From the NCBI GenBank assembly GCA_964485555.1, contig CAZAJN010000033.1:1-38962 (forward strand): 38,962 nt of DNA. Reading direction: 5' to 3'. Below are positions 1,331 to 31,062 of this stretch, in pieces; the first letter of the stretch is position 1, and each line of letters opens with the position of its first letter. The DNA is from an uncultured Bdellovibrionales bacterium (lineage in GTDB: Bacteria > Patescibacteriota > Minisyncoccia > Moranbacterales > GWC2-37-73). The notes under the pieces were generated by a model, which was not told the origin of the DNA, did no database searches, and saw only the letters and a program-made list of their open reading frames with translations. The position numbers were made by a program, and so were the translations under genes.

Positions 1331-2448
1331 ATTGTTCCTCCTCCGAGCACTTCATTGTCGTCAGCATAGAAAACCGCTGATTGTCCTGGCGTAATCGCTT
1401 TTTGCGCCTCCATGAATTCAACTTCGCACATAGTCTTTTCTCTTCTCTTGTTTGTTTCTTGTTTTCTTATTATACCACGCACCAAAGGATGACGATACCT
1501 GATCTTCACATTAACTTCCATCGGGAAAGTTGGCTCATCCGCAATCCAATTCTTGAGCTCAACCAGCATGGTTTTCTTGAAAATCTTTTCATCAGTCTCA
1601 TCATTGGTCACGATCAATTGATTATTTTCAAAATCTCTGTCAACCACAAAATATGGGCCGTTTCCACCAATATTGATTCCTTTTCTTTGTCCAATAGTAT
1701 AAATTTCCAAACCATCATGGGTACCGATTTTTTCTCCTTCAGTATTAACAATATCACCAACTGATAATGTCAGATTGCGCTTGATGAATTTGGTCGGCGT
1801 CTTTTCCGGAGTGAAGCAAAGTCCTTGCGAATCTTCCTTGTCAAAAATCGGCAGTTTCAATTTTTCAGCAATCTTTCTGATTTCAGGTTTCTTATATCCG
1901 CCCACTGGAAACATGATCCGAGAAAGTTGTTTTTGTGAAAGAGAATACAAAAAATACGTCTGATCCTTTTCCTCGTCAGATGATGTGTAGAGATGGTATT
2001 TCCCCTGCCTACCGGCAGGCAAGCATCTATCTTTTCTTACCTTGGCATAATGTCCAGTTGCAACAAAATCAGCGTCCATTTCCAACATTTTCTTGTACAA
2101 AAAATTGAATTTGATCCTTTCATTGCAAACCACGCACGGATTTGGAGTCCTTCCAGCTTTGATTTCTTCCAGAAAATAATCCACCACTTCCTTTTTGAAT
2201 TCCTCAGCCGCGTTCACTGTATAAAGCGGAATATCCAAAATCTGAGCGACTTTGCGAGCATCCTGTTGGGATTCCACCGAACAACATTTGTTCTCCCTCA
2301 ACTCATCCTGTCCAGGCTCTTTCCAGAAATGCAAAAAAACTCCCACGACATCATAGCCCTGCTCTTTTAAAAGTGCGGCTGCTACAGAAGAATCAACCCC
2401 CGCGCTCATCCCCACAATCACTCGTTTTTTTGCTGCTTTTTTATTCAT
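1324..2448 (-). CDS. mnmA: tRNA-specific 2-thiouridylase MnmA
   Basis: PP-loop VGMSAGVDSSVAA at the N-terminus, ATGHYA…KDQTYFLY, full-length 374 aa. Confidence 0.93.
   Translation of the reverse strand: MNKKAAKKRVIVGMSAGVDSSVAAALLKEQGYDVVGVFLHFWKEPGQDELRENKCCSVESQQDARKVAQILDIPLYTVNAAEEFKKEVVDYFLEEIKAGRTPNPCVVCNERIKFNFLYKKMLEMDADFVATGHYAKVRKDRCLPAGRQGKYHLYTSSDEEKDQTYFLYSLSQKQLSRIMFPVGGYKKPEIRKIAEKLKLPIFDKEDSQGLCFTPEKTPTKFIKRNLTLSVGDIVNTEGEKIGTHDGLEIYTIGQRKGINIGGNGPYFVVDRDFENNQLIVTNDETDEKIFKKTMLVELKNWIADEPTFPMEVNVKIRYRHPLVRGIIRKQETNKRREKTMCEVEFMEAQKAITPGQSAVFYADDNEVLGGGTIL
2004..2021. repeat. 18-nt GC-rich palindromic element, copy 1 (in-frame inside mnmA)
   Basis: CCTGCCTACCGGCAGGCA is identical to 13273-13290. 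On the coding strand it reads TTG CCT GCC GGT AGG CAG = LPAGRQ. Confidence 0.85.
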
Positions 2449-11017: not shown

Positions 11018-13510
11018 CTATCTGCGCATTTTCACTTTTAGATTCTTTTCCAATTCATTTGTGATTGAAATCATAACATCATCAATCTCTTTTCCGGTCA
11101 AGGTTCGCTCGTCAGCGCCCAAAATTACATGGAAAGCCAAGCTCGAGGTGTCATCTGCAAAATCTATCACGTCAAACATGTCCACATCCAAAACAAAATC
11201 GCCGCCCGCTTTTTGAATTACCATCAGAATTTCATCCACCAAAACAGAGCTCTCCACTAACAATGAAATATCCCTGGTCACCACTGGATGTTTTCTGATA
11301 GGAGAAAATTCTCTTTCCGCCTCTGAAACAGCGCCGAGTTTTTCCATATCAAATTCGAACATCGCAACCCTGGAACTGATGTCAAATTCTTCGAGCACAA
11401 AAGGATTTATTTCTCCGAGAAATCCGATACTTTCGCCGGAACCTTGAATTTTAATCTCAGCAGTTCTGCTCTGGTGCCAAAGGGAGGAAGGAGTTTCAAT
11501 GGAACTACCCTCAAACGTATCATAATAATGGTCAGTTATGCCGATCTGTTCAAGCAAGTGGTCAACATAACTCTTCGCTTCAAAGAAAACAGATCCATGC
11601 CTTTTGTCCATCTTTTCTTCTTTGGCACTTTTCTTTTCCATAACTATCGCGCCGGTCAACAAATTCTTTTCTTCAGGCAGCGCTTCGCCATTCACCCAAT
11701 ATACTTTTCCGATTTCAAAAATATTGAATTGCTTGAAATTCTTAAGATTTTCACGAACATTCTTCAAAAGATTTGGAACCAAACTCACTCTCATCAACGC
11801 CTGATCAAGACTCATGGGAGCCTCCAATTCCAGATGTTTCAACAAGCCGAGTTGAGCCGCTTTTGCATCTTTCTCGGAATAGAAAGAATAATTATAAACT
11901 TCATCAAAACCAAGTCCTGTCAAAACATTTTTCGTTTGCCTGACAAAAGCGCGCTGAAGATTGACAGGAGCTGGTTGAACTGAAACCAATGGGGCTACTG
12001 TCGAAATTTTTTCATAACCATAAATCCTGCCTATTTCCTCAATCAAATCCTCCTGGGTTGCAATATCCAGTCGATAAGTTGGAATTTCGCAGTTTATGAC
12101 ATTGCCCATGCCGGAAACTTTAATTCCCAAAAGTGACAGGATTTTTTTGCTTTCCTTTGAAGGAATAGCAATACCCAAAAGCTTATCAGCATATGCCAAA
12201 TCCAGTTTTATGCTCCAAGTCTTTTTCTTTTCCGGATATTCATCCAAACCACCTTCCAGGGCTCCACCAGCAACATGTTCAAGAATTTCTATCACTCGCA
12301 CCATGGCTTTTTCAGCAATATTCGGATCGATTTCTTTTTCAAATCTGAGGGCCGCGTCCGAAGATATTCCCAATCTCATCCTGGTCCGCCTGATGGTGGC
12401 CGGCGCAAAATTGGCTGATTCCAAAACGATATTTTTCGTTTCTTTGGTGACTCCAGTTTCCAATCCTCCCATTATGCCGGCAAGTGCAATTGCTTCTTCA
12501 TTATTAGCAATAACAATATCCTCAGAAGAAAGTTTCTTACTGCTTCCATCTAAAATAGTAATTTCTTCCCCCTCTCTTGCATTGCGAACTATTATTTTTA
12601 CGGTTTGATTATTGATATTTGAATTTTGAGATTTGCTTGGAATTTGTAATTTATCATTTGGAATTTCACTTTTTATCTTATCAAAATCGAAAGCATGGAG
12701 TGGTTGCCCGATTTCCAACATTACGAGATTGGTAGCATCCACAATATTATTGATCGGACGGATGCCGCAAAGTTGAAGTCTGTTCTTGATCCATTGTGGC
12801 GAATCTGAGACCTCCACACCCTCCAAAACTGCTCCGACATAGCGACAGCAAATGTTCTTATCGGCAATTTGCACGGAAAGTTTTTTTGATTTAATTTTGG
12901 AAAGTTTCAGCCCGTCATAGTCATAGTCAATTTCTCGTCCTTCCAGAATTGCAATTTCTCGTCCCATTCCAACATGCGAAAGTGCATCATGTGCGCGATT
13001 AGCCAAAATGTCGATTTCAATCATGGCATCGTCAAGATCAAGCACGTCCTTGATTGGAGTTCCAATTTCCAAATTTCTATCCAAAAGCAGGATTCCTTCA
13101 TGACTGGTCCCTAGTCCAAGTTCGTCTTCCGCACAAAGCATTCCGAAGGATTTTACTCCGCGAATTTCTGCTTCCTTGATCTTGAAGTCGCCAGGAAGCG
13201 TCGTGCCTACTGTTGCAACTGGAACTTTGTCACCGACTGAAATATTTTTAGCGCCACAAACAATTTGCAGAACCTGCCTACCGGCAGGCAGGCCTCCTTC
13301 TTTTATCAATGTCCTGGTCACTTGCAATTTGTCAGCATCCGGATGCTTTTCAATTTCCAAAATTTCGCCAACAACCACGCCATCAAGCTTATTTTCAACT
13401 TTTTCAATACCCTCAACTTCGAAAGCGTGCAACATCAACAGATCCTTAATTTCTTCTGGAGTTTTTTCACTTCCCGATATTTCACTGAGCCAATTGTAAC
13501 TATATTTCAT
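11018..13510 (-). CDS. pheT: phenylalanine--tRNA ligase beta subunit
   Basis: 830 aa. N-terminal tRNA-binding domain HPDADKL…QIVCGAKN…GMLCAEDELGL. Located directly downstream of pheS. Confidence 0.93.
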   Translation of the reverse strand: MKYSYNWLSEISGSEKTPEEIKDLLMLHAFEVEGIEKVENKLDGVVVGEILEIEKHPDADKLQVTRTLIKEGGLPAGRQVLQIVCGAKNISVGDKVPVATVGTTLPGDFKIKEAEIRGVKSFGMLCAEDELGLGTSHEGILLLDRNLEIGTPIKDVLDLDDAMIEIDILANRAHDALSHVGMGREIAILEGREIDYDYDGLKLSKIKSKKLSVQIADKNICCRYVGAVLEGVEVSDSPQWIKNRLQLCGIRPINNIVDATNLVMLEIGQPLHAFDFDKIKSEIPNDKLQIPSKSQNSNINNQTVKIIVRNAREGEEITILDGSSKKLSSEDIVIANNEEAIALAGIMGGLETGVTKETKNIVLESANFAPATIRRTRMRLGISSDAALRFEKEIDPNIAEKAMVRVIEILEHVAGGALEGGLDEYPEKKKTWSIKLDLAYADKLLGIAIPSKESKKILSLLGIKVSGMGNVINCEIPTYRLDIATQEDLIEEIGRIYGYEKISTVAPLVSVQPAPVNLQRAFVRQTKNVLTGLGFDEVYNYSFYSEKDAKAAQLGLLKHLELEAPMSLDQALMRVSLVPNLLKNVRENLKNFKQFNIFEIGKVYWVNGEALPEEKNLLTGAIVMEKKSAKEEKMDKRHGSVFFEAKSYVDHLLEQIGITDHYYDTFEGSSIETPSSLWHQSRTAEIKIQGSGESIGFLGEINPFVLEEFDISSRVAMFEFDMEKLGAVSEAEREFSPIRKHPVVTRDISLLVESSVLVDEILMVIQKAGGDFVLDVDMFDVIDFADDTSSLAFHVILGADERTLTGKEIDDVMISITNELEKNLKVKMRR
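13273..13290. repeat. 18-nt GC-rich palindromic element, copy 2 (in-frame inside pheT)
   Basis: CCTGCCTACCGGCAGGCA, extended to the 20-nt near-palindrome CCTGCCTACCGGCAGGCAGG. On the coding strand it reads CTG CCT GCC GGT AGG CAG = LPAGRQ. Confidence 0.85.
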
Positions 13511-18384: not shown

Positions 18385-20055
18385 TTAATCCGATTTTATA
18401 TCGGATTTACGTACTCCTACCATCCAAGTCCTGCCATGGATCCAGTCACTTATGATGAATCTGAGCATGGTGCGGGTGATGACGACTGCTGTAAACATCG
18501 ACACCACCACTCCGATGAAAAGTGAGGCAGCAAATCCTTTGACGAAACCTGTACCCATGAGATACAAGATTCCAGCAGTCAAAAGAGAGGAAACATTTCC
18601 GTCGCGAATCGAGGTCCAGGCACGTTTGAATCCTTCTTCCAATGAATTTGCGATCGTCCTGCCATTTCTTATTTCCTCTTTTGTTCTTTCAAAAATCAGA
18701 ATGTTGGCATCAACAGCCATCCCGATGGACAAGACAAAACCGGCAATTCCTGAAAGTGTCAGAGTAATTCCAGTAAATTTGAAAATAGTGATCATGAGCG
18801 CAGTGTAAATAAGAAGCGCCAAAGATGCCACAAGTCCCAGGAATCGATAGAAGATCAACATGAAAACAATGACAGCACCAAGACCTATCGCGCCAGCTAT
18901 AAGACTTTTATTGAGCGAATCTTGCCCCAGGGAAGCCTCCACGCTTTGCTGTGAAACCAACGTAAGTGGGACAGGCAATGCACCTGTATTCAATTTTTGA
19001 ACCAACTCCTTGGCTTCCTCCAAAGCAAAATTTCCAGTAATGACAGCTTCTCCATTGGTGATTTCGGATTGCACGGTTGGAGCACTAATAATGCTTCCAT
19101 CCAAAAGTATGGCTATCGTCTTTCCAAGATTAGCCTTGGTAAGTTCAGAAAACAGTTTGGTTCCTTCATCGTCAAACTGCAATGAAATTTGCGGCTCTCC
19201 CAGACCTTGACTTTGAAAAGTCACCGTTGCATTTTTCAAATTCTTACCAGTAAGCCCGGTGCCTTTGTATTTAAGTTCGGGATATTGATCCAGAGAAGTT
19301 TTTGGCAGCAAGATGTGAGCTGAGTGAACTTCCTTGTCCTCCCCCTCCCCGCGCGATTCTACAAATTTTATGATGTGCCAACCGAAATCTGACTCAACCA
19401 GCTCCGGATGGATTTCCCCAGGCTTAAGATTTTTTTCAAATAAAACCTGGTCAAATTCTGGCACAAATGTTCCCTTTTTGACGAAATCCAAATCTCCACC
19501 CTTTTCTTTTGAGCCAGAATCCTGACTGTTTTCCTTGGCCAATTCTTCAAAATTTCCTCCCTTTTTGATTTGATCAAGCAATTGAGCAGCTTTTTCTTTT
19601 GATTGCTGGTTTTGAGAATCAAGCATCTGTTGGATCTGTGGATCTACGCCTTCTTCTTTGAATTCAAGCAAGGGAGTTCCTTTGATCTGTTGTTTGGCTT
19701 GTTCAATGTCCTTTATGCCTGGTATTTCTATGACAACTCGGTTTTCATCCCCGCTTTTTGTAGTATAAACCAACGGCTCACCCACACCAAAAGCATTTAT
19801 GCGCCTTTCAATGACATCCTGAACACCTTCCAATGCCTCGCCAACCTTAGATTGGTCGATGCCTGACACATCAGCCTTGTATTCCAGATGGCTGCCACCT
19901 TGCAGGTCAAGCCCCAGATTTATCTTGAACTTATTCAAAACGTCATATAATGCAGGAACTTTGCTGACTGATTGAGGATAGGAAACAAGTCCGGCAAACA
20001 AAGCCAGGACAACAATGGCACCAAACTTCAATTGAATTTTTTTCTTATTGTTCAT
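18385..20055 (-). CDS. secD: protein translocase subunit SecD with inserted parvulin-like segment
   Basis: The GMAVDANILIFERTKEE TM core is present. I trimmed the ORF-track start (20334) to the ATG at 20055 (MNNKKKIQLKFGAIVVLALFAGLV, the signal-anchor). The discarded 93 codons cover a promoter, a terminator and a structured element. Confidence 0.9.
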   Translation of the reverse strand: MNNKKKIQLKFGAIVVLALFAGLVSYPQSVSKVPALYDVLNKFKINLGLDLQGGSHLEYKADVSGIDQSKVGEALEGVQDVIERRINAFGVGEPLVYTTKSGDENRVVIEIPGIKDIEQAKQQIKGTPLLEFKEEGVDPQIQQMLDSQNQQSKEKAAQLLDQIKKGGNFEELAKENSQDSGSKEKGGDLDFVKKGTFVPEFDQVLFEKNLKPGEIHPELVESDFGWHIIKFVESRGEGEDKEVHSAHILLPKTSLDQYPELKYKGTGLTGKNLKNATVTFQSQGLGEPQISLQFDDEGTKLFSELTKANLGKTIAILLDGSIISAPTVQSEITNGEAVITGNFALEEAKELVQKLNTGALPVPLTLVSQQSVEASLGQDSLNKSLIAGAIGLGAVIVFMLIFYRFLGLVASLALLIYTALMITIFKFTGITLTLSGIAGFVLSIGMAVDANILIFERTKEEIRNGRTIANSLEEGFKRAWTSIRDGNVSSLLTAGILYLMGTGFVKGFAASLFIGVVVSMFTAVVITRTMLRFIISDWIHGRTWMVGVRKSDIKSD

Positions 20056-20084
20056 CCGGTATGCATAAAATATTAATATCACTA

Positions 20085-20113
20085 ATAATACTAAACAAAC
20101 ATTGATTTTGCAA
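20085..20113 (-). promoter_or_regulatory. putative secD promoter
   Basis: Minus strand reads TTGCAA (20113-20108), N17, TATTAT (20090-20085). These are the same hexamers as the tyrS promoter. About 30 nt upstream of the ATG at 20055. Confidence 0.5.
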
Positions 20114-20117
20114 TACT

Positions 20118-20143
20118 GACAAAAAATACCCTCGAAGGTATTT
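20118..20143 (-). terminator. putative (bidirectional) intrinsic terminator
   Basis: AAATACC-ctcgaa-GGTATTT (20124-20143) with an A-run on one side and a T-run on the other. The stem is AT-rich and therefore weak. Confidence 0.4.
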
Positions 20144-20170
20144 CTTTTTGTAACACGTAGAAATATTTTT

Positions 20171-20352
20171 GACTTACGCGTTTGAAATGGATTCTGTTTT
20201 CTGCTGGCATGCACGTTTTCTTTTGAGGCAACAGCGAGCTCCGCCAGCTGGCGGAAGCGAGGTCTTAGCTCTTGATCATTAACTCCTTGATCAAGAGCGT
20301 GCCGAAAAAGGAAATGTGCATGCCAGTTCATCATCTTTCAAGCGCGTAGGTC
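20171..20352. ncRNA. candidate structured RNA / nested palindromic element (strand unresolved)
   Basis: Hand-traced helices: 20171-20187/20336-20352 (17 bp), 20204-20224/20306-20326 (21 bp), 20227-20230/20300-20303, and 20268-20278/20288-20298 (11 bp). See the finding for detail. Confidence 0.45.
20240..20255. repeat. 16-nt palindrome TCCGCCAGCTGGCGGA (family copy 1)
   Basis: Perfect palindrome, flanked by AGCGAG (20233-20238) and AGCGAG (20256-20261). Confidence 0.85.
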
Positions 20353-20359
20353 CTAATTC

Positions 20360-20587
20360 TCACTCTGCCAACAGTGATTCGATTTCATTCCACCTCAATT
20401 CCAAAGAACGCTTAAGTTGTTCCAGATCTTCATCCTCGGAATAAAAACCGTAACTCTTCTTTTCTTCAATCAGAACATCAATCAAATCTTTATATTCATC
20501 AAAACTGCGAACGTCTTCCGCCCGTACCTGCCTCAACAATTCGTGGAAAAGATTTTCTGAAGAATACTCTGCGCCTGTGTAAGTCAT
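20360..20587 (-). CDS. hypothetical acidic small protein (75 aa)
   Basis: Co-oriented ORF, E/D-rich and helical. No family recognised. Confidence 0.5.
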   Translation of the reverse strand: MTYTGAEYSSENLFHELLRQVRAEDVRSFDEYKDLIDVLIEEKKSYGFYSEDEDLEQLKRSLELRWNEIESLLAE

Positions 20588-20624: not shown

Positions 20625-21107
20625 TCATATCTGTTGATTCTTTCTTTTCTTGATGATAGCATCAGCTGAGCGCAGGACATTTTTTGAACCATCATTTTTA
20701 ATGTTGATGCGCTTATACGCCTGATCAAAAGTGAGCCAAGCGAAATCATTGTTTTCAAAATCTATTATAACATTTTCATTTTCTGTTTTAACAGCATAAA
20801 AAACTGCCTTTTTGAAAATATAAATGCCCCTTCCCTCCCTGATCCGTTCTTTTTTTTCATTGCCTTTGGCTGTATAAAAATATCGGACAGGCATGCGAAA
20901 AGCCGGGAGAATTTCAAGATCATCAAGTCCTGTTTCTTCTTGAACTTCGCGTCTGAGTGTCTGCTGCTCTGTTTCGCCTTCTTCCACATGACCTTTGGGA
21001 AAATCCCATTGCCAAGATCGATAGCGCACCAAAAGATACAAGATTTTTTCATCTCGAATTCTATAAACAACCCCGCCTACAGATTTTTCAAAAGATATAT
21101 ATTTCAT
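20625..21107 (-). CDS. Nudix hydrolase
   Basis: Nudix box GHVEEGETEQQTLRREVQEETGL. Confidence 0.85.
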   Translation of the reverse strand: MKYISFEKSVGGVVYRIRDEKILYLLVRYRSWQWDFPKGHVEEGETEQQTLRREVQEETGLDDLEILPAFRMPVRYFYTAKGNEKKERIREGRGIYIFKKAVFYAVKTENENVIIDFENNDFAWLTFDQAYKRINIKNDGSKNVLRSADAIIKKRKNQQI

Positions 21108-21231: not shown

Positions 21232-21624
21232 TTATCTAGTTGAAGCTTTCACGGTTTTTGAATAATCACTATATGAATCCTTGTTTCTCTCCTTAATTCT
21301 CGCTTTAAATTTATATTCAGTATTTGATTTCAGATCCGATATGGTAATTTTCTTTTCACCGTCGCTGTTCAACCTCACATTAAAAGTTTGATAAAATTTT
21401 TCGCCTGTCGCGATTTTCTCTATTCTCACCTTTATTCTGACCTTGTCCTTTTCGAAATCACTTTGTTTCACTCTGAGCACAATAGAATTGGAATCTTTTT
21501 GGGATATGCTAATTTTAGGCTTGTCAGCTTTGGCATACACCTCGGACGGAATTCCCAAAAATGAAACCACTGAGAATATTGAAAGTATCGTTATAAGTGC
21601 AGATTTCCTAACAAATCCAATCAT
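21232..21624 (-). CDS. secreted FN3-like beta-sandwich protein
   Basis: I trimmed the start to the ATG at 21624 (MIGFVRKSALITILSIFSVVSFLGIPSEVYA, a signal peptide). A ~95-aa beta-rich unit follows (…SIVLRVKQ…TEYKFKARI…YSDYS…). Confidence 0.6.
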   Translation of the reverse strand: MIGFVRKSALITILSIFSVVSFLGIPSEVYAKADKPKISISQKDSNSIVLRVKQSDFEKDKVRIKVRIEKIATGEKFYQTFNVRLNSDGEKKITISDLKSNTEYKFKARIKERNKDSYSDYSKTVKASTR

Positions 21625-21752
21625 AAATTTATATAATAAATTATGAAGATTATCAGTAATCAGGCAACCGACCTTTATTTCATGAAGGATGATGCCCTCA
21701 GCTCCTTCAGCTATTAATACAAAAATCAGGCAAATTTCTTCTGACGGACGAC

Positions 21753-21783
21753 AAAAAAAGAGAAGACTGCAATCTTCTCTTTT
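21753..21783 (-). terminator. intrinsic terminator after secA
   Basis: AAAAGAGAAGA-ctgcaa-TCTTCTCTTTT gives an 11-bp stem. The minus strand continues into a T-run. Starts 8 nt past the secA stop. Confidence 0.55.
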
Positions 21784-21790
21784 CATATCT

Positions 21791-24445
21791 TCAACAGTTA
21801 CTTACCATGGCAATTCTTGAATTTTTTTCCACTTCCGCAAGGACAGGGGTCGTTTCTGCCGACGTTGTCTTTGTTGATGATGGCCCGCCCGCATCGCTAT
21901 GCGAAGCATTGCGGGCAGGTTTTTGTTCATCAACACTAGCGGCAAATTGCGGTGCATTTTCTTCAGCTCCTTGATATTGAATGTTTTGGGGCTGGACAAC
22001 TTGAGCTGAAGGTTGAGCAGAAACCATGGAAATTTTGAAAATTGTTCGCACAGTTGTTGAGCGCATGTTTTCCATAAGATGAGAAAACAAATGAAAAGCC
22101 TCGCGCTTATATTCAATGAGCGGATCGCGTTGACCGTAGCCTCGAAGACCGATTCCCTGCCTCAAGTAATCGATTTCATCCAAATGATTCATCCAAAGAG
22201 TGTCTATTGTTTGAAGCACGATGGCCTTTTCAATTTGTCTGAGAGCGTCAGTTCCGATTTCGTTTTCCTTTTGAATATAAGCTTCTTTGGCTTTGCTCAT
22301 TGCAAATTCCAACATCAGGGAAATTTTTTCGGCAGTGTTTTTGGATTTATCATCCTTGATTTGTTCCAGTTTTTTCTCATCTTGATCTGCAAAAGCAAAA
22401 ATGTTCCTGAGTTCGTTGGAAATTGTAGCAACGTCCCATTCATAGTCCTCGCCGACGCAATGAGCTGAAATGTTTCTTTCGATTTCCTCTTCAATGTAAT
22501 GCAGGATCTCGTTTTTCACATCGCTCGATGCCAAAATTTCCTTGCGTTTTTTGTAGACAACTTCACGTTGCTTGTTCATCACATCGTCATAGTCCAAAAC
22601 ATGTTTTCGAATATCAAAATTGTAGCCTTCAATTTTTGATTGGGCGCTTTCAATTGTTCGAGAAATGATTGCGTTTTGAATCGGTTGGTCCTCAGGAAGT
22701 CCCAAAGTGTCCATCATGTTTTTCAAACGATCACCTCCAAATCTTCGCATCAATTCATCTTCCAGGGAAACAAAAAATTCAGTGACACCAGGATCTCCTT
22801 GGCGTCCAGCTCGTCCTCTGAGCTGATTGTCGATGCGACGAGCTTCGTGTCTCTCAGTTCCTATAATATAAAGTCCTCCAAGCTCGCGCACGCCTTCTCC
22901 AAGCTTGATGTCAGTTCCGCGACCAGCCATGTTGGTTGCGATCGTCACGGCGCCTTTTTGTCCAGCTCCTGCAATAATAGAAGCCTCTCTTTCATGATGC
23001 TTTGCATTCAAAACTTCATGCTTTATTCCTTCCCTTGCAAGCAAAGCGCTAAGATATTCTGATTTCTCAATAGCCACAGTTCCGACCAAAAACGGTTGTC
23101 CGTTCTCATGGTTTTCTTTGATGGTTTGCACGATGGCATCAAATTTTCCTTTTTCAGTTTTATACACAACGTCTGGAAGATCTTTTCTAATCTGAATCTT
23201 ATTGGTTGGAATTTCAAGCACGTCCAATTTGTACACCTTAGCGAATTCTTCCGCGCTGGTGCTGGCTGTTCCAGTCATTCCGGCCAATTTGTTGTACATG
23301 CGGAAATAGTTTTGGAAAGTGATGGTTGCCAAAGTTCTGGATTCTTTTTGCACTTCCACGTTTTCCTTGGCCTCAATAGCTTGATGCAAGCCGTCACTGT
23401 AACGGCGTCCTTCCATCAATCGTCCAGTGAAATCATCAACAATAATAACTTGCCCGTCTTTGACCACATAATCGCGATCAAGTTTGAACAAAGTCTGAGC
23501 CTTCAAAGATTGTTCCAGATGATGGACATAGTTTATCTTTCCAAGTTCATAAATATTGCCGACTCCAAGTGCGCTTTCCACTTTGGAAATTCCGCTTTCA
23601 GTCAAAGTCACGGCTTTCATTTTTTCATCAATTTCATAGTCCTCTTTCTCTCTGAGGCGTGGCACGATTTGCGCAAATCTTTGATAAAGCTTGGTGGATT
23701 CCGTGTCTGGCGCTGAAATGATAAGTGGCGTCCGAGCTTCATCGATCAAAATGGAATCAACTTCATCCACAATCGCATAGTTCAATTCTCTTTGTGACAT
23801 TTGCTGAGCGCTTTGCACCATGTTGTCACGCAAATAGTCAAAACCGAATTCATTGTTTGTTCCATAGGTGATGTCCGCAGCGTAAGCCTCGCGCCGTGAA
23901 ATTGCTTTCAGGTTTTCCATTTCTACACTCACAGCGTCTGCATCCACAACTTTGGATTCATAGAGATACGATGCGTCATGCATGATGCAAGCAGTTGAAA
24001 GTCCAAGCGCTTGATAGACCGATCCCATCCAATTGCAATCACGTTTGGCCAAATAGTCATTAACTGTCACCACATGCACGCCCTTTCCCTCAATCGCATT
24101 CAAATAGATAGGCAAAGTCGAAGTCAAAGTTTTTCCTTCTCCTGTTTTCATTTCTGTGATTGTTCCACGATGAAGCGCTATTCCTCCAAGCATCTGCACG
24201 TCATAGTGACGTTCGCCGATCACACGCTTGGCAGTTTCACGCACAACCGCAAAAGCCTCCGGCAAAATATCATCCAGAGTTTCATCTTTTTTCAATCGAT
24301 CGCGAAATTCCTGAACTTTTTTAGTCAGCTCTTCATCAGTCAACTTGATCATCACTTCCTCAAAGGAATTTATTTTTCCCACGATCGGGCGAAGCTTGCC
24401 AATCTCGCGTTCATTTGAGCCAAACAGTTTTGAGAATAAAGACAT
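21791..24445 (-). CDS. secA: preprotein translocase ATPase SecA (C-terminal tail apparently frameshifted)
   Basis: [28 protein letters not shown] and [13 protein letters not shown] motor motifs. 884 aa as drawn, ending …[12 protein letters not shown] without the zinc motif. Confidence 0.93.
21798..21896 (-). other. SecA zinc-binding C-terminal motif encoded in the -1 frame
   Basis: Codon-by-codon translation of the alternate frame gives [32 protein letters not shown]. It is bounded upstream by a TAG at 21897-21899. Confidence 0.8.
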
Positions 24446-24591: not shown

Positions 24592-24702
24592 CTACTATCT
24601 TCAGCTAATTTATGACGTAAAGGCTTATTTAGAAGCAAAAATGCAAAAAGCTCGCAAGCACTGTAGAGTTAAAAAGAAGGCTCTCGCCTTCTTTTTAACT
24701 CT
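24592..24702 (+). ncRNA. candidate ~100-nt sRNA (promoter-to-terminator unit without a credible ORF)
   Basis: The predicted TSS is about 7 nt after the -10 box. The unit ends at a perfect 17-bp hairpin at 24665-24702 (AGAGTTAAAAAGAAGGC-tctc-GCCTTCTTTTTAACTCT). Its GC core GAAGGC/GCCTTC is flanked by A5 and T5, so it could terminate in both directions. Confidence 0.4.
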
Positions 24703-24786
24703 TGCATTTCTAAATTTACGTTCCTGAGAGCCGACTTGTGAAGCGAACAGCAATGACCATGTTCAACTAAAAAGCTAATAAGCTAA

Positions 24787-24802
24787 TCCGCCAACTGGCG
24801 GA
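24787..24802. repeat. 16-nt palindrome TCCGCCAACTGGCGGA (family copy 2)
   Basis: Flanked by CTAATAAGCT (24775-24784) and CTAAGAAGCT (24803-24812). Confidence 0.85.
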
Positions 24803-24814
24803 CTAAGAAGCTGC

Positions 24815-25177
24815 TTAAAATCTTGCATTCTCATCCAGCACTACTTTTTTCTTCAAAGACATTGCGCCTCTTTTCTTCAGAGTTCTCAAGCGGTCTTTCA
24901 TGTGCGTGATCTGCTCTTGAAGCTCATCCACCACCATATCAATTGAGGCCTCAATGCTGTCAGTGGTGTTGTCTGCGCGGAACATGTTGCGCGGAGTGTG
25001 AGCCATGACTTCCACTCTGAATTTTCCTTTTTTGTCCAAATCAATTTCAACTTCGGATTTGATGATATTGTCGACAAACTTATCCAAGGTGCTAATTCTT
25101 TTTTCAATATATTCTCTGGTCTTCTCATCCACCTCGACCCCCTTGAAAAAAAATCTGATGTTTTCAATCGTGCTCAT
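24815..25177 (-). CDS. hpf: ribosome hibernation promoting factor / RaiA family (short form)
   Basis: MSTIENIRFFFKGVEVDEKTREYIEKRISTLDKF…FRVEVMAHTP…ADNTTDSIEASIDMVVDELQEQI pattern. I trimmed the start from 25210 to M12 (25177) because the extension would cover the palindrome at 25210-25225. Confidence 0.8.
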   Translation of the reverse strand: MSTIENIRFFFKGVEVDEKTREYIEKRISTLDKFVDNIIKSEVEIDLDKKGKFRVEVMAHTPRNMFRADNTTDSIEASIDMVVDELQEQITHMKDRLRTLKKRGAMSLKKKVVLDENARF

Positions 25178-25209
25178 AATGTTTTTAACCGATACGAACC
25201 TACGAATCA

Positions 25210-25225
25210 TCCGCCAACTGGCGGA
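25210..25225. repeat. 16-nt palindrome TCCGCCAACTGGCGGA (family copy 3)
   Basis: Flanked by CGAACCTACGAA (25195-25206) and CGAATCTACGAA (25227-25238). Confidence 0.85.
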
Positions 25226-25286
25226 GCGAATCTACGAAAATTTATTCGTTGATTCGAATTTACATTAGTAGTTTCGAATCGGATTG

Positions 25287-26216
25287 TTAAAATCCTAGAT
25301 AATTTACTTCTTCCTGCAATTGCACTCCGAATTGGTCGCGCACTTGCTGCTTGACATAGCTTACCAGCATCATGATTTCATCAGCAGTCGCATCCTCAGC
25401 ATTAATGATGTAGTTGGAATGTTTCTCACACACAGCTGCTCCTCCGATTTTTTTCCCCCTAAGTCCAGCTTGCTCTATCACCCACCCGGCTGGCAATTTA
25501 CTGTTTCTTGCCTGTTCACCTTTTTCTTTTTCAAAATCTTCCTTAAGTTTTTGATCTTCCACGATTGGGTTCATGAAAAATGATCCAGCACTTTTATATC
25601 CACCAAGTCCCATCCCCACACGTTTGGCAATCGTCGCACTTGTTTTGCCTTGAGTCTCTTTGTCGTCAGCGGTTTCAAGTTCCAGTTTGGTTGAGATGAC
25701 AATCAAATTTGGGTTTTTCTTGAAGATGCTTGAACGATATGAGAAATTGCAATCTTCATTGGCAAAAACGATTTCCTGATTCTTTTCCAGATCGTACGCG
25801 GTCACCATCTTGATGACTTGGCATATTTCAGCGCCATAAGCTCCGGCATTGCCACGCACAGCACCGCCAACAGTGCCGGGAATTCCAGCCATGAGCTCGA
25901 GCCCAGACAAGCCAGCTTGCGCGGCCATGTTTATGATTTTTATCAAAGGCACGCCAGCTTCTATTTCAAGCACGTTGTCATTGACGCAAGCAGAATTCAT
26001 CTTGACCTTAATGATCAAGCCGTCAAAACCCTTGTCACTCACCAAAAGATTTGTTCCTCCGCCAAGCACATACAAACCCAATTTCTTGTCTTTGGCAAAA
26101 TTCACAGCTTCTTTCAATTCTTCCAATGATTTTATTTCCACAAAGAACTTTGCATTTCCTCCAACTCTGAAAGATGTCATCGGCGCTAATGGAATATTTT
26201 TCTGTACGTTAATCAT
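25287..26216 (-). CDS. murB: UDP-N-acetylenolpyruvoylglucosamine reductase
   Basis: PLAPMTSFRVGGNAKFF, LGGGTNLLVSD, GIPGTVGGAVRGNAGAYG. Confidence 0.92.
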   Translation of the reverse strand: MINVQKNIPLAPMTSFRVGGNAKFFVEIKSLEELKEAVNFAKDKKLGLYVLGGGTNLLVSDKGFDGLIIKVKMNSACVNDNVLEIEAGVPLIKIINMAAQAGLSGLELMAGIPGTVGGAVRGNAGAYGAEICQVIKMVTAYDLEKNQEIVFANEDCNFSYRSSIFKKNPNLIVISTKLELETADDKETQGKTSATIAKRVGMGLGGYKSAGSFFMNPIVEDQKLKEDFEKEKGEQARNSKLPAGWVIEQAGLRGKKIGGAAVCEKHSNYIINAEDATADEIMMLVSYVKQQVRDQFGVQLQEEVNYLGF

Positions 26217-26269
26217 GATTTCTGCTTTGAATGATTATATGAACCGTCAGCAAATTTTTTACATATTTG

Positions 26270-26285
26270 TCCACCAACTGGCGGA
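26270..26285. repeat. 16-nt palindrome family copy 4 (TCCACCAACTGGCGGA, one substitution)
   Basis: Lies between the ATPase stop and the murB start. Here the flanks are inverted (ACATAT…ATATGT) rather than direct. Confidence 0.7.
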
Positions 26286-26291
26286 TATGTA

Positions 26292-29018
26292 TTATTTTGT
26301 AATTCTGTAAGACTCAGCTTTGCGCCCTTCTTCAAAAACAAACACTGCCAGAGTCACCACAGCCACAGCCATCCAGTCGCGTCCAGTTATCGGCATCATG
26401 CGAAGATAATTTTGCAAAAGCGGGACATACATGAATGATAGCAAAATTGAGGTGGAGATTGCAATGGCTCCAATTGCATATCTGTTTTTAAAAAATCCAA
26501 GGGTGAAAACCGAAAGAGTTTCACTACGCGCCGAAAGCAAATTGGCCATCTGCGACATTGCAAGAACTGCATATGTTGCGCTCGTTGATCTTATATATAA
26601 TACGCTGTTGGTGTCGATTTTATTGCCGAAATCCCAGCCACCTCTTTTCATGGACAGAATGAATGCTATCACTGCGCCGATGGCCATGATGAGCCCCACC
26701 CTGACAAGTCTCCAAATGCTTGCGCTGTCTATGATTTTTTCCTTTGAACTGAAAGGCTTGCGCTTCATGACGCCAGGTTCTGATTTTTCCATGCTAAGAG
26801 AAAAAGATGGCAAAAGATCTGTTCCCAAATCAATCGCCAAAATCTGCACAGCCGCAATAGGCGCCGGAATTTGCAAAAGAAGCCCGATTGCAACCGTAAA
26901 AAATTCGCTGACGTTGGAAGTGAAAACATAGTAAACAAATTTTTTCAAATTTTGATAGATAGTTCTTCCCTGCTTGATAACTTTCACAATGGAAGCGAAA
27001 TTATCATCCAGCAAAATAAGATCGGAAGCTTCCTTGGAAACATCTGTCCCGGTTATTCCCATCGCGATTCCAATGTCAGCTTTTTTGAGAGCCGGCGCAT
27101 CATTGACCCCGTCTCCTGTCATGGCGATCACTGCTCCATTGTTTTTTAGTGCGGTCGCAATGCGAAGTTTTTGCTCCGGTTCAATTCGGGCAAAAACGAT
27201 TTCCTTTTCAAAGATCTTTGAGATAAGTTCCTCGTCAGTCAATTTGTTGAGCATTTTTCCGTTGATAATTTCAGCATTAGGATGGCGCAAAAGACCGACA
27301 TTTCTTGCGATAGCCTCGGCAGTAATTTCATAATCGCCGGTGATCATGATGACTTTTATCCCCGAAAGATTGCATTCCTCAACTGCCCCCTTCACATCGG
27401 CTCTTGGCGGATCTATCATGCCCATCATGCCAACCCAGACCAAATCCTTCTCTGATTGTCCGCCATATTGTGATTTTTCAATTCCATCCAAACTCCTTTC
27501 CGCAAAAGCCAGCACCCTGAGCGCTTGCTTGCTCATGGCATCATAGCTGTTTTTAACTTTCAATTTTTCCTCCTCACTGAAAGCAACAATTTCATCGCCG
27601 TTTCGCTTATGCGTGCAAAGATCAATCATAACATCAGGCGAACCCTTCACAAAAGAAGCTACACTGCCATCAAGAGCTCGATAGACAACGCTCATGCGCA
27701 TTCTTTCAGAAGAAAAAGGATTTTCATCAATTTTTTCCAAGCCATTTCGAAAAAAATTCAAATCTTGATCATATTTTCTAGCAGCAACCAAAAGAGCAAC
27801 TTCCGTCGGATCTCCACTGATGGAAATTTTTCCGTCCTTTTCGCCAAGACCACTGTCGTTGCAAAGTGCTCCAATTTGCAAGATCATCTTGAGTTGCGCA
27901 AAACTTTTTGGATCCACCTTCCTGCCGAAGTTGTAGAAAGATCCTTCCTTAGCATAACCTTGTCCATCCACTGTGAATTCATCTTCTCCCGCAATAATGT
28001 TGGTCACCATAAGTTCGTTGCGCGTGATGGTTCCAGTCTTGTCAGTACAGATGATGCTCACCGAGGCCAAGGTCTCAACGGCATTAAGTTTTTTCGCCAG
28101 CACATTATTCTTTAGCAATTTTTTCATGCCCAATGAAAGCGCCACTGAGATTGCAGCCGGAAGACCTTCCGGAACTACTGAAACAGACAGAGCAAGGGCG
28201 AACAAGAAATTCTCATACCAAGATATGTGATAATAATAGCCGGCCACCATAACCAATCCGCCGATAAACACAGCCAAAATGGAGACATCACGTCCCAACA
28301 CTCTCATCTGTTTTTGCAGTGGCGTCTCTTCCTCTTTGACTTCATTTACTAAATTTGCAATGTGCCCCAACTGAGTGCTTGTCCCTGTCTCACTGACCAT
28401 CGCAACAGCGCTTCCTCGCGTAAGTGAGCTGCCCATGAAAATCATGTTATCGATATCAGCCAGCACTGTATTTTCTTCATTGATGATCTGAGTATTTTTT
28501 TTGCCTGGCTTGGACTCACCCGTAAAAATGAACTCGTTGACATAGACGTCGTAACTTTCAATCAAATATGCGTCAGCCGCCACACTGTCGCCCGATGAAA
28601 GCACTATCACATCACCGGGAACCAGCAAGGTTGAATCGATTTCAACTCGCTGACCATCGCGCAAAACGACAGCCTTGTCACTGGCAAGTTTCCTGATATT
28701 TTCCAAAGTTCTCTCAGCCTTATATTCTTGAAAAAAACCGATCGAGGCGTTAATAGTGATGATCAACAAAATTATGGTGGTGTCGCGATACTCGCCGAAA
28801 GCAAATGCCAGCGTGCCTGCTACCAACAATATCCAAACCAACGCATCATTAAACTGCCCAAGCAAAATTGAAAACCAGCTCCAGGATTGTTTCTTGGCCA
28901 CTGCATTTTTTCCATATTGCTTAAGTCTTTTTTCAGCTTCTGCAGTTGTCAGCCCTCCCTCATCTGCAGAAAATTTTTCAAACAGCTCCTTCTTGGTCAA
29001 ATTGTATGTTTGTTTCAT
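26292..29018 (-). CDS. cation-transporting P-type ATPase (type II, Ca2+/Mg2+-like)
   Basis: CTDKTGTITRN phosphorylation site, VPEGLPA, MITGDY, TGDGVNDAPALKKADIG. I prefer M20 (29018, MKQTYNLTKKELFEKF…) because the ORF-track start at 29075 overlaps the upstream gene. Confidence 0.9.
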   Translation of the reverse strand: MKQTYNLTKKELFEKFSADEGGLTTAEAEKRLKQYGKNAVAKKQSWSWFSILLGQFNDALVWILLVAGTLAFAFGEYRDTTIILLIITINASIGFFQEYKAERTLENIRKLASDKAVVLRDGQRVEIDSTLLVPGDVIVLSSGDSVAADAYLIESYDVYVNEFIFTGESKPGKKNTQIINEENTVLADIDNMIFMGSSLTRGSAVAMVSETGTSTQLGHIANLVNEVKEEETPLQKQMRVLGRDVSILAVFIGGLVMVAGYYYHISWYENFLFALALSVSVVPEGLPAAISVALSLGMKKLLKNNVLAKKLNAVETLASVSIICTDKTGTITRNELMVTNIIAGEDEFTVDGQGYAKEGSFYNFGRKVDPKSFAQLKMILQIGALCNDSGLGEKDGKISISGDPTEVALLVAARKYDQDLNFFRNGLEKIDENPFSSERMRMSVVYRALDGSVASFVKGSPDVMIDLCTHKRNGDEIVAFSEEEKLKVKNSYDAMSKQALRVLAFAERSLDGIEKSQYGGQSEKDLVWVGMMGMIDPPRADVKGAVEECNLSGIKVIMITGDYEITAEAIARNVGLLRHPNAEIINGKMLNKLTDEELISKIFEKEIVFARIEPEQKLRIATALKNNGAVIAMTGDGVNDAPALKKADIGIAMGITGTDVSKEASDLILLDDNFASIVKVIKQGRTIYQNLKKFVYYVFTSNVSEFFTVAIGLLLQIPAPIAAVQILAIDLGTDLLPSFSLSMEKSEPGVMKRKPFSSKEKIIDSASIWRLVRVGLIMAIGAVIAFILSMKRGGWDFGNKIDTNSVLYIRSTSATYAVLAMSQMANLLSARSETLSVFTLGFFKNRYAIGAIAISTSILLSFMYVPLLQNYLRMMPITGRDWMAVAVVTLAVFVFEEGRKAESYRITK

Positions 29019-29034
29019 TTTTTTATCGAATTTT

Positions 29035-31062
29035 TTATATAATGCCCAATAATGATTTAAGAGATATGATGTCATATCTAATATCGCCTTTTTTTATGGT
29101 AGAAAATTCTCCAACCATGAAATCATTCCCTCTTTCAAACGCCACTTCTTTCGTTTCTGAATTCTTCAACAAATCAATCATATATTCGAGCAAATGTTCA
29201 TCCCTTTCCAATTCTGCAATTTCAAATTCAGAGTATCCAATTTCGGATTTATTATTCTTTAAGATTTCAAACAGACTCGCACTGCTCATATTTGACCTGT
29301 CTGATTTGAAAACTACATCCAAAAAAGAACTAAACTTTTTGATATTCTCTTTTATTTTGCCGTTCTTTTTCCTGATCTTGCGATCTCTAATTTTCTTGAA
29401 CTCGTCAATCAAGGCAGGGTTTCTTTGCAAAGTTATTTCAATCAATTTCTCAGAGGCATTTTCAATCTTTAACTGCGGAAATATTTTTTCAACTCTTTCA
29501 CCAACTCTTTTTCCAATTTCAAGAAGTTGTTCATCCTCTTCCAATTCACTAATATTTGCCGCTGACTGTAAAAATTCAAGAACGATTTTTCTTTCGTCTT
29601 CATCAAGCAATGATTCTCCTTCAATAGAAATGATTTCGTCCAATATTTGCATATCGACAAATTCGCCCTCAATAATCTTAATGATTCGACTATTTATCTT
29701 AGCCATCAACTCCCTACGAAAGGGATCTGCAACAAAAGTGTCGCTTTTATTCATTATAGCTTCTGCAAATTTTATTTTTTGTTGTCCGTGGCCACAATCC
29801 ACATCAGTCCTGGCTGAATATCTGTCCGCAGTTATGACTGAAACATCTTCAGTTCTTTCAGTTTTTCCAATCTTAGCAAGACGAAATCCAAATTCAGGAT
29901 CTTCGCCACCTTTTTTTTCAGGGACACCGCCAACAATAGCTGACTCATACGCCCTACTGAGCATATTTGCTCCTGAGAAATGCACCCTTTCAGTCTCGAT
30001 AAATTCACCGACTTCATCTTTGCAATTCCTGGCAAAAAGATTATCCGTCACTAGCCAATACAAATATTCCAATTCGGCGAAATATCCAGCCTGAACCATG
30101 ATAGGATCATATTTTTCCATCTGCTCAAATTGCAATTTGCCAGCTGCACCAACCAATTCCGGCTTTTCACTGAATAGTTTCAATATATTATAAATGTATT
30201 TTTCATCAACCTTCGTGTCCGCATCTGTTTGAGCGATTATTCCATTTTCCTTTTTCTGTTCGTAAAAACGTGCCACAGCTTCAGCGACACCCCTATTTCT
30301 AGCAGAACCAACGTTGGATATTGCCATTGTTTCTCCTTCGCTTGCCTTATCAATAATATGAATTTTTATTTTTGATTCTTTGATCAAACCGATTGTTTTC
30401 ATCTCATCTTCCGTGCATCCAATTTCCTTTTCTTCTCCATTTATAAATTCAAGAATATTCATCACTTGCTTGTTTTCAACAAGCGATTTTTTGTACTGCT
30501 CCAAAGTCCTGGAATAGTCAACATCACTTTCTTTTTTACTTCTCAAAGGTTCCTCGCCTGGATTATTCAAAACAAAAATCACTTCAAAATCTTCCGGTTT
30601 TACATCTTTTTGTTTTGCCAAAGATTCCAATGGACGAAAAACATAATCTCTCTCGCCATAAACGGGAATTACCACAATCACCTTGCATGCTTTATCCAAG
30701 AGTGTTTCGATTCTTTTTTCCGTATCAGGCAAATTCTTCATCAAGTACTCGATTATTTTCTTTTCATTCAAAAGTTCGTCAAATTTCTCATTGACTCGCT
30801 CAGCCAACTCAATTGACTCATGTTCCATTTTTTCGAAAATTAGTTTTCTTGTCTGTTCACCAATTTCATATCCCGCATCCCTCATTTCGTCCAATCTTTT
30901 TTCAATATCCGAGTTTCTTTTTTGTTCTAACTCTGAATTATCAGCGTTTTTATCACCACTAAAAGAAGCCAGATTCATGTTGATAACTGTAAGTCTGTTT
31001 ATTCTTTCCTGTTGAATGTTTTCGATTTTTGTTTTTTCTTGGTTTTCGATTCTTGATTCCAT
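29035..31062 (-). CDS. large soluble GT2-family (GT-A) glycosyltransferase with coiled-coil N-terminus and ~240-aa helical C-terminal extension
   Basis: VVIPVYGERDYVFRPLESLAKQ, IIAQTDADTKVD (DxD), FSGANML…GGEDPEFGFRL. No TM segment. The ORF-track start at 31074 is a TTG; I prefer the ATG at 31062. Confidence 0.7.
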   Translation of the reverse strand: MESRIENQEKTKIENIQQERINRLTVINMNLASFSGDKNADNSELEQKRNSDIEKRLDEMRDAGYEIGEQTRKLIFEKMEHESIELAERVNEKFDELLNEKKIIEYLMKNLPDTEKRIETLLDKACKVIVVIPVYGERDYVFRPLESLAKQKDVKPEDFEVIFVLNNPGEEPLRSKKESDVDYSRTLEQYKKSLVENKQVMNILEFINGEEKEIGCTEDEMKTIGLIKESKIKIHIIDKASEGETMAISNVGSARNRGVAEAVARFYEQKKENGIIAQTDADTKVDEKYIYNILKLFSEKPELVGAAGKLQFEQMEKYDPIMVQAGYFAELEYLYWLVTDNLFARNCKDEVGEFIETERVHFSGANMLSRAYESAIVGGVPEKKGGEDPEFGFRLAKIGKTERTEDVSVITADRYSARTDVDCGHGQQKIKFAEAIMNKSDTFVADPFRRELMAKINSRIIKIIEGEFVDMQILDEIISIEGESLLDEDERKIVLEFLQSAANISELEEDEQLLEIGKRVGERVEKIFPQLKIENASEKLIEITLQRNPALIDEFKKIRDRKIRKKNGKIKENIKKFSSFLDVVFKSDRSNMSSASLFEILKNNKSEIGYSEFEIAELERDEHLLEYMIDLLKNSETKEVAFERGNDFMVGEFSTIKKGDIRYDIISLKSLLGII

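Follow-up and report, generated by a model that had tools for sequence, protein, structure and literature searches.

Why should four spacers between co-oriented genes of a Moranbacteria contig carry the same 16-nt GC-rich palindrome? The question is raised by contig CAZAJN010000033.1 (assembly GCA_964485555.1), analyzed over positions 1 to 38,962 (the window), in which the palindrome, designated P1 (TCCGCCARCTGGCGGA), is found around murB, hpf, and secD, genes that, like their neighbors in this region, all lie on the minus strand. The four copies are probably solo members of a very short, dispersed hairpin repeat that is associated with a small nuclease gene and is accompanied by a second palindrome of 20 nt, P2 (CCTGCCTGCCGGCAGGCAGG). 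The first-pass annotation of this DNA had reported P1 at four positions, at all of which it was found:

26270..26285: P1 copy 1, plus strand TCCACCAACTGGCGGA, sense RNA UCCGCCAGUUGGUGGA; 6 nt past the stop codon of a P-type ATPase gene and 54 nt ahead of the murB start.
25210..25225: P1 copy 2 (TCCGCCAACTGGCGGA); 33 nt upstream of the hpf ATG.
24787..24802: P1 copy 3 (TCCGCCAACTGGCGGA); 12 nt past the hpf stop codon, upstream of the conserved hpf terminator.
20240..20255: P1 copy 4, TCCGCCAGCTGGCGGA, a perfect palindrome; in the spacer that separates secD from a small open reading frame (ORF; ~20360-20585).

Copies 2, 3, and 4 match P1 and copy 1 carries one substitution, and these were the only sites within three mismatches in the 38,962 bases, compared with shuffled-sequence means of 0.00 matches at ≤2 mismatches and 0.24 at ≤3. 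All four copies are intergenic and their clustering is only mildly unusual (three within 1.5 kb, P = 0.05; all four within 6 kb, P = 0.018). In each of the four sense transcripts, and in every context, P1 is predicted to fold into a 6-bp stem closed by a tetraloop, which fits it better than the 7-bp stem with a 2-nt loop described initially. Three of the four copies share a change from AGCT to AGTT, reading UCCGCC-AGUU-GGCGGA on the sense strand, and these three AGTT copies have a single orientation, the same as that of the genes. With its substitution, the 26270 copy still pairs on the sense (minus) strand, as G-U, whereas the plus strand has an A.C mismatch there.

Two of the copies were found to interrupt tandem arrays with a period of 8 nt:

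25193..25238: minus strand, period-8 array, sense TTCGTAGA x3.8, interrupted by P1 copy 2 in the second unit.
24767..24812: minus strand, period-8 array, sense AGCTTNTT x3.2, interrupted by P1 copy 3.

In silico deletion of the 16 nt of P1 yielded an uninterrupted TTCGTAGA x3.8 array without indels, which is undetectable with P1 present, and the AGCTTNTT x3.2 array was likewise restored without indels by deletion of P1 together with 4 nt (TTAG). Direct repeats had been noted on both sides of three P1 copies from the outset, and they are real. The two longest are accounted for by insertion into pre-existing tandem repeats, one of the two origins first proposed for them, with the 12-nt pair at 25195-25206 / 25227-25238 consisting of units of the TTCGTAGA array and the pair at 24775-24784 / 24803-24812 of units of the AGCTTNTT array. 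The third, AGCGAG / AGCGAG at the 20240 copy, is a 6-nt duplication, and removal of P1 leaves the tandem CTCGCTG CTCGCTG. An AT-rich inverted repeat, TACATAT / ATATGTA (26260-26266 / 26285-26291), carries the 26270 copy in its loop. The other origin proposed, target-site duplication, is not supported in the form first given, as the apparent duplications measure 0, 4, and 6 nt in the window and 0-10 nt elsewhere. A fixed-length duplication, as expected of a miniature inverted-repeat transposable element or other DNA transposon, was thus not found among the window copies, and P1 also lacks the internal sequence of such an element.

Period-8 tandem arrays are present in the spacers around hpf both in the window and in several other Moranbacteria, with a unit sequence that differs by species (TTCGTAGN, AGCTTNTT, GTTAACGN, and ATTGTTAN). 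Those of the other genomes are located at 10931-11017 of L003, 8600-8691 of L006, and ~3440-3500 and ~5700-5760 of L288, and upstream of hpf the arrays are often set as two inverted groups.

The nearest homologues of the MurB encoded in the window belong to Candidatus Moranbacteria / Patescibacteria, and three species with MurB identities of 72-77% (L001, L003-5, and L006-8) were used for comparison. A look-up of exact proteins gave no match for the MurB of the window and, for its Hpf, only L009, which is the same sequence (100% identical); the contig is part of the AMFJ01 aquifer metagenome. The closest other MurB is 79% identical, and the comparison of empty sites is thus one between species, not strains. 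All three relatives have the gene order murB-hpf-secA-NUDIX-secD-secF, as in the window. Throughout the 11-20 kb examined in each, CCGCCNNNNGGCGG was absent, as were P2 and any other recurrent GC-rich 16-nt hairpin. The hpf terminator and a TATTGCAAAAT box in the promoter region before secD are conserved in position, and the spacers are therefore comparable. Since P1 is absent from comparable orthologous spacers, it is a lineage-specific addition and not ancestral spacer sequence.

When one genome per bacterial species was scanned, P1 was located in at least 119 stretches, with at least 133 sites. Among the matches listed, 91 of the 133 sites were in loci of less than 50% GC. A 16-mer with 12 G+C is expected to be far commoner in high-GC DNA. 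A control scan of viral contigs gave the pattern predicted by chance, with 91 of the 120 loci listed being high-GC, whereas a metagenome scan for the AGTT variant gave 82 low-GC loci among the 120 listed, none of which is from the source organism. The low-GC records listed in the genome scan derive mostly from the candidate phyla radiation (CPR), Bacteroidota, Elusimicrobia, Cloacimonadota, and KSB1, with Marinimicrobia also represented; judged by record titles, approximately one-third of the matches listed are CPR metagenome-assembled genomes (MAGs) and one-quarter Bacteroidota. Several of the loci listed contain two to four P1 copies, with up to four per 8 kb, and the window itself has four P1 and two P2 copies in 39 kb. 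Most of the low-GC sites listed (73/91) are outside long ORFs. The flanks of the 16-mer carry almost no information, and conservation is therefore confined to the palindrome. Outside the window, the asymmetric AGTT/AACT variant shows no bias toward the sense strand (5 versus 5). Phages were considered as a vector of P1 but are not supported, as the viral matches listed were mainly high-GC and chance-like and showed no co-occurrence of P1 with P2.

Elsewhere, P1 is also found within proteins and structural RNAs. Of the 18 low-GC sites listed that are inside long ORFs, 14 read as PPAGG, usually NPPAGG, and in-frame insertions of ~18 nt encoding NPPAGG were identified in cysteinyl-tRNA synthetase (CysRS), glutamate dehydrogenase (GDH), and a TraG-like protein. 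Alignment of the first two with solved homologues revealed a gap of 6-7 residues falling on the palindrome, and the TraG-like protein encoded in the window (6012-8174) lacks the seven residues NPPAGGE of its L111 homologue and thus represents an empty site. The RNase P RNA of a Cyclobacteriaceae MAG has P1 as the tips of helices P3 and P12. More generally, P1 forms the tip of a longer hairpin, bidirectional terminators included, at 13 of 94 sites (2.7 expected), and flanking direct repeats of at least 6 nt accompany 6 of the 94 (0.7 expected). A single repeat family with both filled and empty members is present in an isolate, Mucilaginibacter flavidus (L093), and in its filled copies P1 replaces 9 nt and is not a plain insertion. 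Removal at the RNA level, as by a tiny intron, was also considered and was ruled out by the preserved reading frame of the ORF-internal copies.

P2 was the sole other recurrent GC-rich hairpin in the loci selected for P1, with 14 copies in eight such loci, some only 10-50 nt from P1, and it was encountered again in the metagenome loci. Two copies are present in the window, both inside protein-coding genes:

13273..13292: P2 copy (CCTGCCTACCGGCAGGCAGG, one mismatch) inside pheT; an exact 6-codon insertion, LPAGRQ.
2004..2023: P2 copy (two mismatches) inside mnmA; an exact 6-codon insertion, (C)LPAGR(Q).

Solved MnmA and PheT structures have exact 6-residue gaps at these positions. The window copies carry one or two C-to-T changes, of which a central one is common to both. 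P2 is the element that the first-pass annotation had called LPAGRQ, and the two palindromes therefore belong to one phenomenon. Among the origins that annotation had offered for P1 was a REP-like motif or a tiny mobile palindrome akin to LPAGRQ, and this has stood up well, given the absence of P1 from the spacers of relatives, the arrays it interrupts, the clean in-frame insertions elsewhere, and its co-occurrence with P2 across phyla.

Exact 20-nt P2 was also seen in at least 35 stretches of IMG/VR viral contigs (L249-L283), most of them high-GC, including one 29.5-kb contig with at least six copies; this is far above chance for a 20-mer.

All small ORFs (≤260 amino acids) within 400 nt of P1 in the genome-scan loci listed were clustered all-against-all, and single-domain GIY-YIG proteins were the only family to recur. 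With the metagenome loci added, seven of eight GIY-YIG ORFs were located 4-180 nt from P1, and all eight encode proteins of 77-101 amino acids with Pfam GIY-YIG as the only domain. For the nuclease, NCBIfam gave only sub-threshold GIY-YIG matches, and the best solved structure was a weak hit to UPF0213 EF2693 (E = 0.66). Three of the loci (L104, L379, and L297) have a common order, in which a duplicated tRNA 5' fragment whose D arm holds a GC palindrome is followed by the GIY-YIG ORF and then by the intact tRNA. For an independent sample, homologues of the L104 protein were retrieved with protein identity as the sole criterion. This sample comprised loci from Moraniibacteriota (L404), Jacksonbacteria (L405-413), and Woesebacteria (L414-423), and was positive in all three protein clusters and all 20 loci: in each, an exact TCCGCCAGCTGGCGGA is found 16-30 nt upstream of the start codon of a ~83-amino acid GIY-YIG ORF, inside a copy of the 5' part of the host's own tRNA-Asn, and the ORF abuts the intact tRNA-Asn(GTT). 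The same tRNA-Asn cassette is present in L280 with P2 in the place of P1. A second subfamily, of 97 amino acids, is bracketed by inverted hairpins of the form GTCATTGCGAG-loop-GAAGCAATC, the loops of which hold P1 in L344, L093, L107, L109, and L116. No GTCATTGCGAG hairpins were found in the window.

In the Woesebacteria (L414-L423) and Jacksonbacteria (L405-L413), the tRNA-Asn locus that lies downstream of the GIY-YIG gene is a hotspot of variation between strains, where a second GIY-YIG ORF, with a tRNA 3'-end fragment after it, is present or absent, and a type I restriction-modification system alternates with a serine recombinase and a DNA methylase. Disruption of tRNA genes was considered and ruled out, as the interrupted tRNA pieces are duplicated fragments beside intact genes.

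These observations are consistent with a model in which P1 entered this Moranbacteria lineage and inserted into spacers with slippage- or hairpin-prone DNA, namely the tandem octamers and the AT-rich hairpin. P1 and P2 would form a repeat set accompanying small single-domain GIY-YIG nuclease genes, for which the carrier cassette in the CPR would be the tRNA-Asn 5' fragment with P1 or P2 in its D arm, followed by the ~83-amino acid GIY-YIG ORF and the intact tRNA-Asn. By analogy with the GIY-YIG nuclease Ssn and its NTS/SRM repeats, and with the REP-associated tyrosine transposases (RAYT) and repetitive extragenic palindromes (REP), the palindrome may fold on single-stranded DNA (ssDNA) into the 6-bp GC hairpin, this hairpin may be the cognate site at which the GIY-YIG protein recognizes or cleaves P1, and the nuclease, or repair of its breaks, may spread the repeat. 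The arrangement P1-murB-P1-hpf-P1 might in turn affect the recombination of incoming DNA or the ends of the mRNAs. In its most specific form, which we put forward tentatively as a possibility that we would not yet favor, P1 and P2 would be the cognate ssDNA hairpin sites of selfish tRNA-Asn-associated GIY-YIG cassettes found CPR-wide, and would be dispersed by the nuclease itself, its breaks at hairpin loops, tandem repeats, and off-target sites being healed by copying of the 16-20-nt palindrome from the cassette.

Several results weigh against an origin of the window copies in a nuclease-associated repeat. Neither a GIY-YIG gene, as searched for by tblastn with one protein (L104), nor a tRNA gene is present in the 39-kb window. 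Most solo P1 copies have no duplication or flanking hairpin, and no copying mechanism is therefore evident from them. The independent sample consists of three protein clusters, not dozens, and when the 97-amino acid subfamily was sampled independently (L424-435), P1 was present in 0 of 12 loci; P1 is therefore specific to one GIY-YIG subfamily or merely optional. The published SRM pattern, HGTCWYN(0-2)YYVSBRHN(0-5)WNVSBRGN(0-2)RNCYNB, had no match in the window or in the P1 and GIY-YIG loci scanned, and P1 contains no GTCW tag. Finally, the single orientation of the AGTT copies and the sense-only pairing of the 26270 variant are compatible with selection acting on the RNA.

The genes around the copies, with protein families assigned by Pfam, are as follows:

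26292-29075: minus strand, P-type ATPase.
25287-26216: minus strand, murB.
24815-25177: minus strand, hpf.
24665..24702: minus strand, canonical intrinsic terminator of hpf, AAAAAGAAGGCGAGAGCCTTCTTTTT; position kept in all three relatives.
21791-24445: minus strand, secA.
21232-21786: minus strand, fn3 protein.
20625-21107: minus strand, NUDIX.
18385 (end) to near 20056 (start): minus strand, secD.
17322-18227: minus strand, secF.

The start of hpf is most likely at 25177, not 25210. The mechanical ORF at 18385-20334 overcalls secD, the actual start of which is near 20056 (MNNKKKIQLKF...), and the 20240 copy is therefore intergenic, within a 303-nt spacer after the small ORF. No T run follows any P1 copy of the window on the sense strand, and thus none has the form of an intrinsic terminator; the sole terminator-like call covering a copy in a consensus scan, at 26260-26291, is on the antisense (plus) strand. 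The canonical hpf terminator is 85 nt further downstream than copy 3, and this copy is therefore an extra element and not the terminator. Rfam at gathering thresholds produced no match in the window.

A Y-shaped structured region (20180-20320; folding z = -3.2) lies in the 3' region of the small ORF ahead of the secD promoter. Its outer stem is formed by GGCATGCAC...GTGCATGCC, and its two arms are an 11-bp hairpin and P1 copy 4. In its place L003 has a long inverted repeat of other sequence, and L001 and L006 have none. SecD (18385-20056) contains an inserted PPIC-type peptidyl-prolyl isomerase (rotamase) domain, located between the SecD N-terminal P1 domain (not to be confused with the palindrome) and the P1 head subdomain, and the same insertion is found in L001, L003, and L006. 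The TraG/VirD4-like coupling-protein gene at 6012-8174, which has a zinc-finger tail, has a raised G+C content (0.44-0.49, compared with ~0.39 around it) and may be part of an integrated element.

The copies might alternatively be a functional site of the genes beside them. The first-pass annotation had suggested an operator for envelope and translation genes. In this reading, a dimeric transcription factor would bind the 7+2+7 palindrome and co-regulate murB, hpf, and secD. The perfect or near-perfect palindrome, its GC-rich half-sites, and the positions of copies upstream of these three genes are what such a site would look like, but three related species, in which the gene order is identical and the operon the same, lack P1 in these spacers, one copy is downstream of hpf, and no helix-turn-helix regulator is associated with P1. 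Furthermore, the identical 16-mer occurs in unrelated phyla in frame in CysRS, GDH, RecJ, UvrD-like, and TraG-like genes, as well as in RNase P RNA and at terminator tips, making an operator very improbable; in annotation of this contig, the palindromes should not be called operators of murB, hpf, or secD. A role in the RNA, where the hairpins would be kept as 3'-end stabilizers, processing sites, or attenuators of polycistronic mRNA, as has been proposed for REPs, accords with the stable 6-bp hairpin and tetraloop predicted in the four sense transcripts. Two copies are close behind stop codons (6 and 12 nt), the three asymmetric ones are in the sense orientation, the 26270 substitution is tolerated as G-U in sense RNA only, and a few degenerate copies elsewhere have compensatory double changes. 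We nevertheless regard this role as distinctly unlikely, given that the hairpins are not followed by a U tract and a conserved canonical terminator is found further downstream, that the asymmetric variant is evenly divided (5 versus 5) elsewhere, that copies in coding regions and pseudo-tRNA fragments are unable to serve in this way, and that relatives manage without the hairpin. Such a role could also be a secondary effect of insertion, and it leaves the origin of P1 unexplained.

Mobility could also be independent of any nuclease, with P1 spread by template switching during replication or by short-patch gene conversion between hairpins, and with its position beside GIY-YIG genes being just another favored hairpin or tRNA-like target. 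The replacement of 9 nt in L093 and of 3-8 nt in pseudo-tRNA fragments, the preference for hairpin tips and tandem repeats, and flanking duplications of variable length or none all agree with this. On the other hand, exact P1 was found at the same cassette position in all three independent protein clusters, from different CPR lineages, and in L104 and L379, seven of the eight GIY-YIG ORFs are within 180 nt of P1, and the presence of identical 16-mers in different phyla calls for some vehicle of horizontal transfer; on this evidence we consider nuclease-independent spread unlikely. Chance matches or ancestral spacer sequence, for which only the small copy number in the window speaks, have a negligible probability in view of the shuffles without matches, the orthologous spacers without the motif, and the hundreds of identical copies among the matches listed in other low-GC genomes. 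Taken together, these data favor a dispersed hairpin repeat associated with GIY-YIG nucleases as the source of the four copies.

If this is correct, the short and so far puzzling insertions in proteins and structural RNAs of the CPR would gain a concrete and testable origin, and new pairs of enzyme and site would become available for ssDNA-cutting tools. Were dispersal by the nuclease also correct, P1 would be the shortest mobile DNA unit known, common across bacterial phyla, and P1 and P2 would be agents that lengthen proteins (by NPPAGG and LPAGRQ) and remodel the helices of structural RNAs such as RNase P.

Literature searches by sequence and by topic turned up no account of P1, P2, or the tRNA-Asn cassette. 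Some of their features are shared by known systems. The GC clusters and hairpin elements of mitochondria (PMC4478555, PMC2800124) and the palindromic elements of Rickettsia (PMC10969869) are, like P1, GC-rich hairpins that invade AT-rich compact genomes, are sporadic among close relatives, have short or ambiguous flanking duplications, form nested or merged insertions, and are tolerated in frame in protein genes; involvement of homing endonucleases has been proposed for them (PMC4478555, PMC2800124, PMC10969869). They are, however, 30-150 nt long and lineage-restricted, whereas P1 and P2 are 16-20 nt and common to several phyla. The insertions in rRNA genes of CPR bacteria share the hosts and a location at the top or base of structural-RNA stem-loops (PMC11270868). 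The short ones lack ORFs, and some insertions encode GIY-YIG proteins and are not introns (PMC11270868). They differ in being reported for rRNA genes only and without a 16-nt palindrome (PMC11270868).

The REPtrons, in which REPs are paired with RAYT enzymes of the IS200/IS605-like Y1 type (PMC3733652; PMC11893778), resemble the P1 system in having short GC-rich extragenic palindromes between co-oriented genes and in that copies of the repeat flank the gene for the associated enzyme. The enzyme is of the HUH/Y1 type in one case and GIY-YIG in the other, P1 is half the length of a REP, and the identity of P1 across phyla contrasts with the species-specificity of REPs. REPs are imperfect palindromes of 20-40 nt with a GTAG/CGTC tag, and the flanks of P1 contain no conserved tag, GTAG being found near the window copies only within the octamer units around copy 2. 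Nor was a Y1 transposase linked to P1, with GIY-YIG the sole recurrent family among the small neighboring ORFs of the genome-scan loci.

The closest parallel is with Ssn, described in 2025 from Neisseria and other Pseudomonadati, a group of single-domain GIY-YIG proteins of ~94 amino acids encoded between hairpin repeats of their own, termed NTS/SRM (Chenal et al., Nat Commun 2025, PMC11893778). Binding of the hairpin by Ssn proteins is confined to ssDNA, which they cut immediately upstream of the hairpin; copies of the repeats number in the hundreds and are clustered around genes, the identity of the loop is dispensable, and the authors themselves draw the analogy with REP/RAYT (PMC11893778). 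That report does not mention CPR bacteria or tRNA-linked cassettes (PMC11893778). The GTCATTGCGAG-loop-GAAGCAATC hairpins (L424-L435, L093, and L344) are missed by the published SRM pattern, although their GTCATT and AATC ends are like those of the published NTS, CGTCATTCCCGCG...GCGGGAATC.

The likeness of the CPR subfamily to Ssn, drawn from protein size, Pfam domain, and repeat context as read from sequence, extends to a small single-domain GIY-YIG protein (~80-100 amino acids) with a gene flanked by a GC-rich hairpin repeat, to the dispersed and mostly intergenic distribution of P1, with P1-murB-P1-hpf-P1 resembling NTS-gene-NTS, and to an SRM loop that tolerates any sequence, which fits the nesting of P1 in GTCATTGCGAG...GCAATC loops. 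P1 differs in being only 16 nt and perfectly symmetric, in having no oriented GTCAT tag, a requirement for cleavage by SsnA, and in occurring also in frame in coding regions and in RNA genes. The joining of the CPR carrier to a duplicated tRNA-Asn 5' fragment is likewise an arrangement not found in PMC11893778. If P1 is the repeat of such a nuclease, the pairing of enzyme and hairpin repeat known from Ssn would extend to the CPR, with a 16-nt perfect palindrome as the repeat and a tRNA-Asn cassette as its context.

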